Positions 173 through 6,032 of a DNA stretch of 38,413 bases are shown one piece after another (position 1 is the first letter of the stretch; every line of letters starts with the position of its first letter). The notes beneath the pieces were generated by a model that did not search any database, was not told where the DNA came from, and was given only the letters and a program-made list of their open reading frames with translations. The DNA comes from a virus: the UHGV virus genome UHGV-0319989; one strand, written 5' to 3'. The translations under genes were made by a program, and so were the position numbers.

Positions 173-612
173 TATAAGAATCTGCTTCTAATTCAAAGTA
201 TTATCCCATCAACACTGCGCTCACACGTCCCACCACATCAAAACATGTAAAGCCTTGCAAGCCATTGCGAGGCCTTATGTGTCTCAGTTTTGTCCCACCT
301 TGTATTACGACTTGCATAGCCAATGAAGATAAACGTGACGACAAACGGCGCAGCAGTCTTCTTTTCCTTCATACTTTCCCCACCCAGCATGCATACCTTT
401 ATGCCATAACTGAAGTTTATGTCTGTTATGAGCGAGGAACGGACATTACTAACAGCATTCTGTGTGAATCACCAGGGAGCAGGTCAGCGCCACTACTCTA
501 TATAATCGCTAACGATGACAAGTATAATTATATAAGTCTTTGCCCTTAGCTTTTGGATAAAATTGTTGAAGTTTCACGAAAATAATGATAAACAAAAAAA
601 GTAGCAATAATA

Positions 613-1557
613 ATGGATTTAATTATGGAATGGAGATTTTTAGGTTCTCTATCAGAGGCCAGGAAATCTGGCTGTAGCGGAGTTTATCTTATTGTCCATA
701 AAGGACTTTTCAGTCGTGTGGTTTACGTTGGGGTAAGTTGTAATGTAGGTAGAAGGATAACCGAACATTACGACGGTTATCTTAGAGGAAATCGAACAAT
801 TTACGACGCTGGTCACGACGAAGACGTTTATCGCTTCATGTCAGCTTATAAAATTCATAACCACACAAAATACTATCAAGCCTTGGCGAATGATTATAAG
901 ATATGGGCATCTACCACAATGTATTCTGATTTGCCGAAAAACATGCTAGCAAAAAGCCAAACCTTTGATACTGATTGGCAGAGCATTGCATTAGAAAAAT
1001 ATATTCCTCAACTGGTAGTATGGGCCCTTCCAATGGCAAAATACTGTTATTCAAATGCAAGCAGGATTGAAAGTGTAATCCAATCAAAGCTCATTAAATC
1101 TTTTGATTTGAGAGGTTTTTTTAATATAAAGCAATTAAGCATATTGGGTAAAATTGAATATCCCTATATGGAAAAGGTCAAAGTTTTCATTATTAACACA
1201 CCTGATTTAGACCCGGCATCCCAGCTTATTTTTAGCAATCTATATAACAAAAAAACTGATAACAACTTCTGTAAAGAGTTCCGTTCACAATTTAAAAGCG
1301 AGATTTTTCAGAGGGAAAGTGAAACTCAGAGAAAGCGAACTATTAGGGAGCATAAGGTATCTCTTTATGAAAATTATGGCAAGCCTTGGACTTTAAAGGA
1401 AATGGAAAAACTTAGAGTCATGCTTGTCGATTTTGATTTGTCCCCGACAGAAATATCTGAGTATCTAGGAAGAGAGCCGCGCTCTATATCTAAAAAAATA
1501 AGCGAAAATGATAAAGTTACTAATTATAAATGGCGAGAGAGCGTCGGCTGGTTGTGA
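613..1557 (+). CDS. Hypothetical protein with GIY-YIG-like N-terminal motif and C-terminal HTH-like motif (homing-endonuclease-like architecture)
   Basis: 314-aa ORF in strongly AT-rich DNA. N-terminus GVYLIVHKG...RVVYVGVSCNVGRRITEH resembles the GIY-(x10)-YIG...R...E/H nuclease motif; C-terminus KPWTLKEMEKLRVML...SPTEISEYLGREPRSISKKI resembles a WTxEE-type HTH. Start codon uncertain (613 or 625). Confidence 0.55.
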   Translation: MDLIMEWRFLGSLSEARKSGCSGVYLIVHKGLFSRVVYVGVSCNVGRRITEHYDGYLRGNRTIYDAGHDEDVYRFMSAYKIHNHTKYYQALANDYKIWASTTMYSDLPKNMLAKSQTFDTDWQSIALEKYIPQLVVWALPMAKYCYSNASRIESVIQSKLIKSFDLRGFFNIKQLSILGKIEYPYMEKVKVFIINTPDLDPASQLIFSNLYNKKTDNNFCKEFRSQFKSEIFQRESETQRKRTIREHKVSLYENYGKPWTLKEMEKLRVMLVDFDLSPTEISEYLGREPRSISKKISENDKVTNYKWRESVGWL

Positions 1558-1705
1558 CGTTACGTTTTGATTGAAATAACCCCCATTTTGCAAAGTCCGC
1601 TCTTGGCACATAGCAGACCAGAGACACTGGCGTAAAGCCATGGAGGATCGGTGGGAGGAGGTAAAAATCCTCTCATGCAAAAAATACGCAAAATCGATAA
1701 CAGTT

Positions 1706-1786
1706 GGAAATCATTCAATACTCGCACTATCGGAAGTTCACCATCCAGCCGCAGCAAGTTCTTGCATACGACGTGTCAGCGGGTTC
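1706..1786. repeat. Copy A of an ~80-bp hairpin-containing repeat family at cargo-module boundaries
   Basis: About 87% identical by hand alignment to 4376-4458 (core CATCATTCAATAYTCGCACTATYGGAAGTTCACC...GTTCTTGCATAC(R)ACGTG); shorter related copy at 5438-5478. Confidence 0.6.
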
Positions 1787-1931
1787 AACTCCCGCCAGCT
1801 CCACCAATCATGATTGGACGGTGTAAGGACAACACCAACAAAAACAGGATGTTAGCAGTCTCAGCAGGACACCGACCAGACGGTGAGGAGACAAAAAAGG
1901 ATACGCAAAGGAGCCGCAGCTCCCGAGTGAT

Positions 1932-1961
1932 AAAAAAGCCCGCTTATGCGGGCTTTTTTTT
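1932..1961. terminator. Bidirectional rho-independent terminator
   Basis: AAAAAA-GCCCGC-TTAT-GCGGGC-TTTTTTTT: perfect 6-bp GC stem, 4-nt loop, A-run on one side and T-run on the other. Lies 10 bp beyond the stop of the minus-strand BRO-N gene. Confidence 0.8.
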
Positions 1962-1970
1962 CCCTCAAGC

Positions 1971-4222: not shown

Positions 4223-4375
4223 TCTTTGCTAATCTTAGGCCCTTTTCTAGGGCCTTTTATTACACTTCTGTTACGCGCACCACAGATAGAGTTTCAGCTA
4301 AAACTTTTGTTCATACCTAGGAGTCTGCTGACGAGTGGTTTGTTCACTAATAAACACGTAAAAACGGTAACGGCT

Positions 4376-4458
4376 GGACATCATTCAATATTCGCACTAT
4401 TGGAAGTTCACCAGCCAGCCACAGCACGTTCTTGCATACAACGTGCCTGCGGTTTTTG
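4376..4458. repeat. Copy B of the ~80-bp hairpin-containing repeat (terminator-like 3' end)
   Basis: About 87% identical to 1706-1786; ends with imperfect stem GCACGTT...AACGTGC followed by TTTTT. Lies about 135 bp upstream of the GIY-YIG gene. Confidence 0.6.
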
Positions 4459-4592
4459 AGACCGGTCCGATCATCAAACGAAACATAAAATTAGCTCACA
4501 CTATGAGGAAAAGTATCTTTTTTTACTATGTAAATTCAAAGGATTAGCCTCATTTACCCGATAGTTTTCTCAACACTACTGGTTGTGAGCCC

Positions 4593-5417
4593 TTGCAATG
4601 TTCATTAATATACGTCTCACAAATAATTCATAGATATTGCAAAATGGATATTACTGAGTTTCCTTCTGGAGTAATTGAACACCTTGGCTGGTATGTATAC
4701 CGATTGATTGATCCGAGGGACGGAAGCACCTTCTATGTAGGGAAAGGCAAAGGTAACCGCGTATTTGCCCATATGCGCGGTGAAGTGGCAGCGACTGATG
4801 ATGACGAGTTACTGAGCAACAAGCTAAAGCAAATTAGAGAAATAAGGTTAGCAGGACTTGAGGTTATCCATGTCATCCATCGACACGGAATGACTGATGA
4901 AAAGACGGCGTACGAAGTTGAAGCAGCACTTATTGATGCCTACCCTGGGTTAACGAATATCATGAATGGTGCTGGCAGCAATGAATTCGGCGCCGCGCAT
5001 GTCAAAGAGTTGATAGCAACATATCAACCCGAAACCATAACATTTCATCATAAAGCATTAATGATTTCCGTTAACAGAAGTGCAAAGGATTCAGAGCTTT
5101 ATGATGCGGTTCGATTTAGCTGGCGCATTAATGTCTCTCGCGCCAGCCAAGCAGAAGTCATTCTTGCTACTGTAAGGGGGATCGTTCGAGGGGTTTTCAT
5201 TGCTGATAAATGGCTCAAATCAACACGTGAAAATTTCCCTACGATGAAATACTGGGACGAGGATCCGGACTTTGAGGCAACACAAAGTTCTCGCTATGGT
5301 TTTGAAGGTCGAGAAGCCCCACCTGAAATAGCAAATCTTTATCTTGGAAAAAAAATACCAGATGAATTAAGAAAAAAAGGAGCTATGTCCCCGGTCCGTT
5401 ACTCACCTAATTTTTGA
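4593..5417 (+). CDS. GIY-YIG nuclease-domain protein with uncharacterised C-terminal domain
   Basis: [33 protein letters not shown] is a clear GIY-(x10)-YVG...R...H/E motif. Alternative start at 4644 (MDITEF...). No SD at either start. Confidence 0.7.
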
Positions 5418-5437
5418 GTCTTTAAGTGATAAGCATA

Positions 5438-5478
5438 AACCGCAGCACGATCTTCTTGCATACGACGTGCTACGGTTT
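5438..5478. repeat. Copy C (short) of the hairpin repeat; likely bidirectional terminator between convergent genes
   Basis: AAA-CCGCAGCACG-(16-nt loop containing TTCTTGCATACGA)-CGTGCTACGG-TTT, a 9/10-bp stem between the GIY-YIG stop (5417) and the invertase stop (5478); shares the core with copies A and B. Confidence 0.55.
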
Positions 5479-6032
5479 CATTTATCTCCGACCGGAAACT
5501 TCTTATACAGTGTCGATATACCAACATCATAGATGATCGCCACCTTCTGGCGAGGAACGCCTGATGCAATTAATCGCCCGGCCTGCGCCCATTGTTCTGG
5601 TGTAAGTTTGGGACGACGTCCACCAATTCGTCCCTGTGCGCGAGCAGCTTCCAGTCCAGCTTTTGTTCGTTCAACAATCAGTTCTCGTTCCATTTCAGCC
5701 AGGGCACCCATCACATGAAAGAAAAAGCGCCCCATTGGGGTACTGGTATCAATTGAATCCGTCAGACTACGAAAGTTGATGCCTCGTTCGTGCAACTCCT
5801 CCACCAGCACGACAAGATGCCGCATACTGCGCCCCAGTCGGTCCAGTTTCCAGACCACCAGCGTGTCACCTGCCGATAATGTCCTGAGCAGCTTTTTCAG
5901 TCCTGGTCTGTCGGACTTTGTACCGCTTATCTTGTCTTCAAAAATCAGCTCACATCCTGCACAGTTCAGCGCATTACGTTGTAGATCTGTGTTCTGGTCA
6001 TTTGTTGACACACGTACATAGCCAATAAGCAT
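5478..6032 (-). CDS. Serine DNA invertase, Hin/Gin/Pin/Cin family (tail-fibre inversion recombinase)
   Basis: N-terminus MLIGYVRVSTNDQ (catalytic Ser motif), resolvase core, C-terminal HTH GVPRQKVAIIYDVGISTLYKKF. GGGAGA SD upstream of the ATG at 6030-6032. Adjacent to the invertible segment. Confidence 0.9.
   Translation of the reverse strand: MLIGYVRVSTNDQNTDLQRNALNCAGCELIFEDKISGTKSDRPGLKKLLRTLSAGDTLVVWKLDRLGRSMRHLVVLVEELHERGINFRSLTDSIDTSTPMGRFFFHVMGALAEMERELIVERTKAGLEAARAQGRIGGRRPKLTPEQWAQAGRLIASGVPRQKVAIIYDVGISTLYKKFPVGDK

Follow-up and report, generated by a model that had tools for sequence, protein, structure and literature searches.

The cargo end of a thrW-integrated SfII/e14-like prophage of Escherichia coli: a probable mosaic of three exchangeable modules carrying a known and a candidate defence gene

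The virus genome UHGV-0319989 (38,413 nucleotides, hereafter the window, whose coordinates are used throughout) represents a temperate myovirus of the SfII/SfIV/e14 type, residing as a prophage in Escherichia coli. The analysis was focused on region 173-5480, located between a remnant of a tRNA-Thr gene (thrW), which marks the attachment (att) site, and the tail-fibre invertase gene. This region is most probably (about 75% for the explanation as a whole) a mosaic of three independently exchangeable modules, constituting the accessory cargo end of a thrW-integrated SfII/e14-like phage: (i) a hypervariable slot, occupied here by a gene for a 314-aa protein with a GIY-YIG domain and a helix-turn-helix (HTH) domain, (ii) a block of BRO-N, XRE-family HTH and ImmA-like genes, and (iii) a CMoRE/PD-T4-3 gene. 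The anatomy of the region and the presence/absence polymorphism of its parts are observed directly in related genomes. The exact anatomy and one candidate defence gene are new, while prophage defence hotspots as such are already known.

The module boundaries were determined by blastn comparison with related lysogens, and all genome counts refer to 5,426 complete E. coli genomes. Other thrW lysogens share segments 5-447 and 1595-6113 of the window at 92-99% conservation, and the gene of the 314-aa protein, the BRO/HTH/ImmA block and PD-T4-3 were found in 290, 34 and 821 genomes, respectively. In strain 2009C-3133 segment 125-1785 is fused straight to 4349-6113, so that this strain lacks the BRO/HTH/ImmA block, and it retains a single copy of a 107-nt repeat, of which the window has two. 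The modules would be swapped or lost via homologous recombination between the conserved flanks and a repeated, terminator-bearing element described below.

A preliminary description, made from the sequence alone, had proposed an AT-rich accessory region of about 5 kb, and the base composition agrees with this (40.4% GC in 173-5480 vs. 54.3% in the structural genes, 6100-28300; only 36% in the gene of the 314-aa protein). All the genes that it named (GIY-YIG/HTH, BRO-N, XRE/ImmA, a second GIY-YIG and the invertase) are present, and the accessory genes are all intact and under purifying selection rather than disrupted pseudogenes; two small open reading frames (ORFs) are additional to its list. 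Relatives do not share this gene set in a conserved order, since no genome carries the full 1-6100 arrangement (0 of 5,426; top coverage 81%), and the predicted presence/absence polymorphism was found in the replacement of 448-1594 in other thrW lysogens, as well as in the loss of the BRO/XRE/ImmA module from 2009C-3133. The notion of a single island stands as to accessory content, but the region is not homogeneous, being composed of three modules, an ssrA relic (1779-1808) and copies of a repeated non-coding element. Similarly, the term variable hotspot fits the left 1.15 kb (448-1594) and not the rest. The right two-thirds was inherited en bloc from a relative that integrates at ssrA. The interpretation as accessory cargo is supported by the fact that cargo at this position and prophage hotspots (SfII, lambda, P2 and P4) are already known.

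Segment 448-1594 is a true hypervariable slot. Its interior was different in each allele fetched, while the flanks (5-447 and from 1595 onward) were conserved, the homology of the left arm ending at 444-447. The alternative occupants comprise (i) retron Ec48 (RT_IV, 2.4e-163; 2TM_IV, 1.2e-81), (ii) AbiTii (4e-37) with a DUF6650 protein, (iii) an OLD/AriA/GajA-like (Gabija-like) ABC ATPase with a small partner and (iv) an S1/trypsin-like peptidase related to the effector proteases of retrons and Lamassu, the first two being validated defence systems and the latter two defence candidates, and (v) a 379-aa protein without known function (Orf54 of phage phi458). The cassette found in the window is at least 99% identical in the 290 genomes carrying it, in several different contexts, and is sharply bounded (1.2 kb, 421-1618, at least 99% identity in unrelated contexts). 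A limited literature search revealed no description of this slot. Two uncharacterised candidates were noted in addition: in strain H7 (1979-4005) the slot is occupied by an OLD-like ATPase of 564 aa along with its 94-aa partner, and in strain 50EVAW (9159-11768) an 869-aa SMC/LmuB-like ATPase occurs in place of the second and third modules.

Table 1. Features of the cargo end and its borders (window coordinates)
Feature	Coordinates	Strand	Remarks
tRNA-Thr (thrW) 3' remnant, 46 nt, attR core	127-172	-	100% identical to positions 31-76 of the intact thrW of LZSFT34
att-proximal arm of thrW-type phages, left flank of the slot	173-447		about 92% identical in other thrW lysogens and phi458
Hypervariable slot, 1.15-kb single-gene cassette	448-1594	+	replaced in relatives
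314-aa GIY-YIG nuclease with C-terminal Myb/SANT-like HTH (predicted)	613-1557	+	candidate stand-alone defence nuclease
Repeated element, copy 1, right flank of the slot	1595-1785	+	80-87% identical in 196 phage records
Relic attP core of an ssrA-integrating phage	1779-1966	+	last ~30 nt of tmRNA and ~150 nt of ssrA-downstream sequence; terminator 1925-1966
BRO-N/Ant-like (anti-repressor-like) protein, 253 aa	1971-2732	-	Pfam Bro-N E=2.4e-7, 31.7 bits, above cut-off
Divergent promoter region, candidate operator	2733-3065		GTAGA at 2965, TCTAC at 2998
XRE-family HTH repressor (CapH-like)	3066-3416	+	Pfam HTH_19/HTH_3; PADLOC capH 1.2e-10, HTH_VI 1.9e-12
ImmA/IrrE-family Zn-metallopeptidase (CapP-like)	3420-3953	+	HELGH motif; Pfam Peptidase_M78 2.8e-11; PADLOC capP 5e-15
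Two small ORFs (49 aa, 3940-4089; 47 aa, 4079-4222)	3940-4222	+	followed by a terminator-like site, 4237-4255
Repeated element, copy 2, 3' part (hairpin, then T-run)	4349-4455	+	84% identical to 1679-1785
CMoRE/PD-T4-3, LEM-3-like GIY-YIG nuclease, 257 aa	4644-5417	+	PADLOC PD-T4-3 E=2.4e-140, residues 1-256 of 257
Repeated element, copy 3, hairpin only; bidirectional terminator	5437-5478		third member of repeat family D2
Pin/Gin-type DNA invertase, right boundary of the region	5478-6032	-	Pfam Resolvase 1.3e-51 and HTH_7

The early region of the prophage shows a match of about 97% to SfII, SfIV and related ECOR phages, and genes for baseplate J, YmfQ, tail-fibre and tail-fibre-assembly proteins, with the Pin-type invertase, are located at approximately 5.5-9.6 kb. 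The thrW remnant, which the preliminary description had correctly recognized at the edge of the region, is an exact match over 46 nt, and position 173 is the first base past it; no complete tRNA was found in the window by ARAGORN. In strain LZSFT34 the same prophage is bounded by proA-thrW-int on one side and by a yagP remnant and paoD on the other, and the remnant in the window is therefore a displaced attR copy. The same prophage family is placed between thrW/int and yagP/paoD in other strains. Positions 1-127 match phage phi458. Beyond the att remnant, segment 1-113 (+ strand), homologous to the attP arm of this phage, is the 3' end of an integrase gene from an earlier thrW element, whose counterpart in LR-62-2 is annotated as an integrase pseudogene; the thrW locus has thus been occupied by elements in succession or in tandem. 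A P4-like satellite is present at the thrW junction in strain 50EVAW.

The second module has a different origin. Because it starts with a relic ssrA attachment core, the block from 1779 rightward came from an ssrA-integrating relative. Within this core, which also contains inverted repeat I3, 1779-1808 is the 3' end of transfer-messenger RNA (tmRNA; Rfam match), and 1810-1960 is the host region downstream of ssrA, matched in 3,632 genomes. In FDAARGOS_1373 the homology to the window begins inside an intact ssrA, and the order is smpB, ssrA, BRO, HTH, ImmA, two small ORFs, PD-T4-3, pinE and tail genes. In phage LLS the attP (annotated as a tmRNA pseudogene) is followed by the same BRO/HTH/ImmA set.

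Between the three modules are found copies of a non-coding element of about 190 nt, whose variability is equal across the three codon phases and which has stops in every frame across 11 copies. In lambda (NC_001416, 24162-24349) it lies in the b region between ea31 (HNH) and ea47, and in phage 21 upstream of sitABCD; the 196 phage records with the element also include HK629/630 and many Stx phages. Wherever its position was inspected, the element lay between att/int and the tail-fibre genes, with constant orientation and accessory cargo alongside. The element ends in a hairpin (CCGCAGCACGT...ACGTGTCTGCGG), followed by a T-run in copy 2 and in phi458. The 3' half of the copy 1 hairpin is replaced by the ssrA core, with the join at a short shared GCGG, which has the look of an illegitimate fusion of a thrW-type with an ssrA-type phage. 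Copy 3 is situated between the convergent CMoRE/PD-T4-3 and invertase genes, and its predicted folding energy is -16.3 kcal/mol (z -3.3) on the + strand and -22.5 kcal/mol (z -4.3) on the - strand. The element would act as a terminator/insulator that also provides homology for cassette exchange or deletion, and it may give lambdoid and SfII-like phages a homology anchor for the shuffling of defence cassettes. No annotated function was found for it.

Several other identities of the element were considered and rejected: (i) a protein-coding sequence (annotated by the Prokaryotic Genome Annotation Pipeline as a "capsid protein" fragment in one genome), given the lack of codon periodicity and the stops mentioned above; (ii) a diverged tmRNA, since the Rfam tmRNA match (1500-1806, 26 bits) stems only from the genuine ssrA 3' end, with no such match in the lambda copy or in copy 2; (iii) an invertase crossover site, the real sites (6094-6113 and 7706-7725) having a different sequence; and (iv) a structured RNA, for which RNAalifold gave just 4 compensatory pairs and a covariation term of -0.8 kcal/mol, supporting only the terminator hairpin. 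The sole Rfam signal for the element is a weak match of its terminal hairpin to the CssrB 3' end, and at gathering thresholds no Rfam match was obtained in the whole window.

The third module encodes a protein which, by its sequence, is a member of the CMoRE/PD-T4-3 family, and thus the product of a known defence gene. It matches the crystallised protein of E. coli O157:H7 (PDB 9U75) along its whole length (phmmer E=3.7e-172, residues 1-257) with about 98% identity and few substitutions, and shows no difference of note from the CMoRE structures 9U75 and 9U7U. The tyrosines of the GIYxY-YIG motif (Y17, Y19 and Y31) and the acidic (negatively charged) inhibitory loop, both described as features of CMoRE (PMC12923530), are present. 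CMoRE is a type IV modification-dependent endonuclease, which degrades DNA containing 5-hydroxymethylcytosine (5hmC) or its glucosylated form (glucosyl-hmC, 5ghmC) and restricts T-even phages, as shown for the proteins of E. coli O157:H7 and avian pathogenic E. coli (APEC) O1 (PMC12923530). Activity of a CMoRE-type enzyme has been reported in a clinical isolate that carries it natively, and Mu DNA, too, is cut by a homologue (PMC12366544). The CMoRE of the window would guard the lysogen from T-even phages by the same cleavage of 5hmC/glucosyl-hmC DNA. The defence content suspected in the preliminary description is well founded for this proven enzyme, whereas the roles proposed below for the other two modules are putative; likewise, the defence predictor PADLOC recognized PD-T4-3 at full length and returned for the 314-aa protein a weak motif match.

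For the second module more than one function was weighed: its Ant-like protein may act in host defence, in cross-talk between prophages or in the induction of this phage itself. Its BRO-N protein matches anti-repressor (Ant) families of PHROGs (E down to 4e-17) and has 79% amino acid identity to gp30 of LLS. The strong, near-consensus BRO promoter (GTGACA-16-TATAAT, 2783-2756, - strand) and the HTH promoter are divergent, and an inverted repeat (GTAGA...TCTAC) is located just upstream of the latter; this repeat and the -35/-10 sequences of the BRO promoter are kept in LLS despite an overall DNA identity of about 75%. The module's proteins are 79-87% identical to those of LLS, above the DNA value. 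The 47-aa ORF shows the same tendency (87.5% protein identity vs. ~75% for DNA), and the 49-aa ORF is frameshifted in LLS; neither small ORF had a family match in Pfam, PADLOC or PHROG searches. By analogy with ImmR/ImmA and CapH/CapP, a protease-cleavable repressor would control the Ant-like protein: stress or infection would trigger cleavage of the XRE repressor by the ImmA-like peptidase, de-repressing the Ant-like gene. Like CapH/CapP and ImmR/ImmA of ICEBs1, the module has adjoining genes for an XRE HTH protein and an M78/ImmA HEXXH metallopeptidase, divergent from the presumed target, but the divergent gene is here BRO-N/Ant-like and not a CBASS operon or the excision operon of an integrative and conjugative element (ICE).

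A defence role of this module is putative. Against it, the divergent gene is Ant-like and not a recognized defence effector, and it could serve prophage induction. The module would then be the phage's own induction circuit, a DNA-damage-triggered anti-repressor switch comparable to Tum of 186, the Gifsy antirepressors and ImmR/ImmA of ICEBs1. The Ant matches, the pairing of XRE and ImmA, the divergent promoters with their conserved inverted repeat and the attP-proximal position of the whole module in the isolated phage LLS all fit such a circuit. We nevertheless consider it unlikely, since the module occurs in only 34 genomes, a close relative has both flanking modules without it, a LexA-family repressor is encoded in the prophage's own cI/cro-type region, and SfII-type relatives work without the module. 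The same rarity and its absence from 2009C-3133 show that the block is dispensable.

The occupant of the slot, the 314-aa protein, is the candidate defence gene mentioned above. Its similarity to known proteins is faint: the Pfam GIY-YIG profile (PF01541) matches residues 22-62 only (E=0.017, 15.8 bits vs. a cut-off of 22.6), and other motif-level matches are to PADLOC PDC-S14 (E=0.0075) and to an NCBIfam group I intron endonuclease (E=0.004). Beyond such weak matches, nothing was found by sequence in PDB, PADLOC, NCBIfam or PHROGs, and Foldseek with the model of the protein found nothing at E<=0.001 in PDB or BFVD. In the confident AlphaFold model (pLDDT 92.7, pTM 0.83) the protein has the GIY-YIG alpha/beta fold, with a large insertion in this domain (about residues 60-135). 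Y25, Y38, R48, H52, E153 and N171 are invariant in an alignment of 36 homologues (down to 38% identity), their catalytic roles being assigned by position and not by a structure-based alignment. The C-terminal HTH gave sub-threshold Myb matches in Pfam for 4 of 6 C-terminal fragments, and resembles structurally the DNA-binding domain (DBD) of GcrA, a tentative lead. The protein has no sequence relation to CMoRE (BLASTP E=8).

The 314-aa protein belongs to a small family (among 1.84 billion sequences, 139 representatives reached E<=1e-3), and the 72 homologues collected come mainly from Gammaproteobacteria, with at least one betaproteobacterium (Undibacterium); among 50,697 phage records tblastn found none. 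It was also observed, among proteins P0089-P0137 of the representative search, that the N-terminal nuclease module of about 208 residues exists alone as proteins of 200-230 aa, and that the C-terminal SANT-like unit occurs elsewhere as 3-5 tandem repeats. Since both units exist separately, the architecture looks like a fusion of two independent modules. With I-TevI/Seg and R.Eco29kI the protein shares the GIY-YIG catalytic fold and the canonical Tyr, Tyr, Arg, His, Glu and Asn, and with I-TevI also a separate C-terminal DNA-binding HTH on a long linker; it differs from all of these in the large insertion, the Myb/SANT-like (GcrA-DBD-like) domain and the lack of phage homologues and of a partner methylase.

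Genomic contexts of the homologues were examined in 10 other taxa and one E. coli island. The gene was found (i) at the E. coli thrW junction, beside a P4-like satellite integrase, (ii) interrupted by an insertion sequence, in an E. coli island that has DarTG and a type I restriction-modification system, (iii) adjoining AbiH in Aeromonas, (iv) adjoining BrxR and an Mks-like cluster in Thalassotalea, (v) in integron-like cassette arrays of Vibrio parahaemolyticus, (vi) near HNH and HEPN-RES genes in Undibacterium, (vii) in a Salmonella integrative element carrying Thoeris, (viii) as ICE cargo in Brenneria and (ix) in a Yersinia conjugative element, beside a faint Abi_2-family gene. Based on these contexts and on the defence content of the alternative slot alleles, the best reading of the 314-aa protein is a stand-alone anti-phage nuclease, to which we give even odds. 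Its HTH domain would recognize foreign DNA, which the GIY-YIG domain would cut. Because there is no partner methylase or immunity gene, the recognized feature would most likely be modified or otherwise unusual DNA (type IV-like, read by the SANT domain). With somewhat less confidence, we tentatively propose that the protein is the founding member of a new family of anti-phage nucleases encoded by single genes, in which a GcrA-DBD-like Myb/SANT domain reads a modification or a sequence feature of invading phages and directs the GIY-YIG domain with its large insertion, and that it complements the 5hmC-specific CMoRE encoded 3 kb away.

A number of points weigh against the nuclease being a defence protein. 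Dependence on modification is a guess drawn only from the missing partner gene and the GcrA-DBD resemblance. The PADLOC match is nothing beyond a weak motif, and literature searches, including the accession and the combination of GIY-YIG with Myb or integron, found nothing specific on the protein. The association with defence genes is qualitative, with at least two contexts (in Kosakonia and Serratia) in which the gene stands solitary between housekeeping genes without defence neighbours, and the slot survey covered a handful of alleles. The GIY-YIG-linker-HTH architecture is also that of homing endonucleases.

The last point raises the alternative of a selfish, free-standing homing endonuclease (I-TevI/Seg-like), spreading by cutting cassette-free alleles and being copied during repair. 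The NCBIfam motif match, the intron-associated or GIY-YIG endonucleases among the weak BFVD matches, the sharp bounds of the nearly identical cassette in unrelated contexts and its solitary insertions in Kosakonia and Serratia would suit such an element. It is nonetheless rather improbable: the cassette-free alleles are not empty sites but hold other genes, defence genes among them; no homologue was found in the phage records and no BFVD match reached E<=0.001; the C-terminal domain is Myb/SANT-like and not of the I-TevI type; and homing cannot explain the integron-like arrays, the cargo of ICEs and integrative mobilizable elements, the AbiH/BrxR/Thoeris neighbourhoods and the chromosomal islets. 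Finally, that the whole region is decaying junk from tandem or recombined prophages at thrW and ssrA, AT-rich merely through foreign origin, is very improbable in spite of its relics (the ssrA attP core, truncated repeat copies and an integrase fragment just outside) and of the insertion sequences that break it in several relatives, because the five main ORFs are all full length with end-to-end matches to RefSeq proteins or families, protein identity to LLS exceeds DNA identity, the catalytic residues of the 314-aa family are retained down to 38% identity and CMoRE alleles of the same kind are experimentally active.

The mosaic cargo end proposed here resembles several known regions. Variable defence hotspots have been described in P2-like phages and P4-like satellites (Rousset et al., 2022, PMC9122126; Vassallo et al., 2022, PMC9519451); as in those, the flanks are conserved and the content, rich in retrons, Abi genes and OLD-like ATPases, varies between similar prophages, but the host phage is here of the SfII/e14-like family, with a Mu-type tail and integration at thrW or ssrA, and the slot lies between the tail-fibre invertase and att. 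The b region of lambda occupies the same map position, with ea47, ea31 (HNH) and ea59 (ATPase) as cargo beside the same non-coding element. SfII carries oac/gtrABII at the same position between tail fibre and attP, and its cargo alters phage susceptibility via O-antigen modification. Lambda and SfII differ from the window in their cargo genes, and in the window three modules are stacked, with element copies between them. In e14, mcrA lies beside pinE at what we take to be the equivalent position.

Several features outside the cargo end were also noted. The 20-nt inverted crossover sites (95% complementary) bracket an invertible segment of about 1.6 kb beside the invertase gene; this segment encodes alternative tail-fibre C-termini as well as assembly proteins. 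A 350-aa type II-like DNA methyltransferase (27240-28292, - strand; PADLOC MTase_II, E=1.6e-152) has no nuclease-like gene directly beside it, its right-hand neighbours being a YejK-like pair, and could represent an orphan methylase with which the phage counters restriction. This pair, a YejK-like nucleoid-associated protein (388 aa) and its 408-aa partner, forms a second AT-rich island (28882-31271, + strand, 33% GC) next to the antiterminator Q gene (31264-31623, - strand), which was found in only 30 of the E. coli genomes. Distant NCBIfam matches of the pair to DS1_1/DS1_2 ("anti-phage") are well under the cut-off, and PADLOC gave none; the island is probably another defence or moron cassette, in a Q-proximal hotspot.

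The cargo end described here is a worked example of how such an end of a prophage is assembled, with a relic attP of a foreign site and modules bounded by a terminator element shared with lambda. Within it, the gene of the 314-aa protein is a good candidate: it is compact and conserved, its product has a confident model, and about 5% of complete E. coli genomes carry it; if the protein is truly a modification-reading nuclease, it could become a reagent, as has been proposed for CMoRE. Prophage hotspots are a productive source of new immune genes, and the slot with exact flanks at 447 and 1595, in common SfII/e14-like prophages of E. coli and Shigella, may be used to harvest further alleles.

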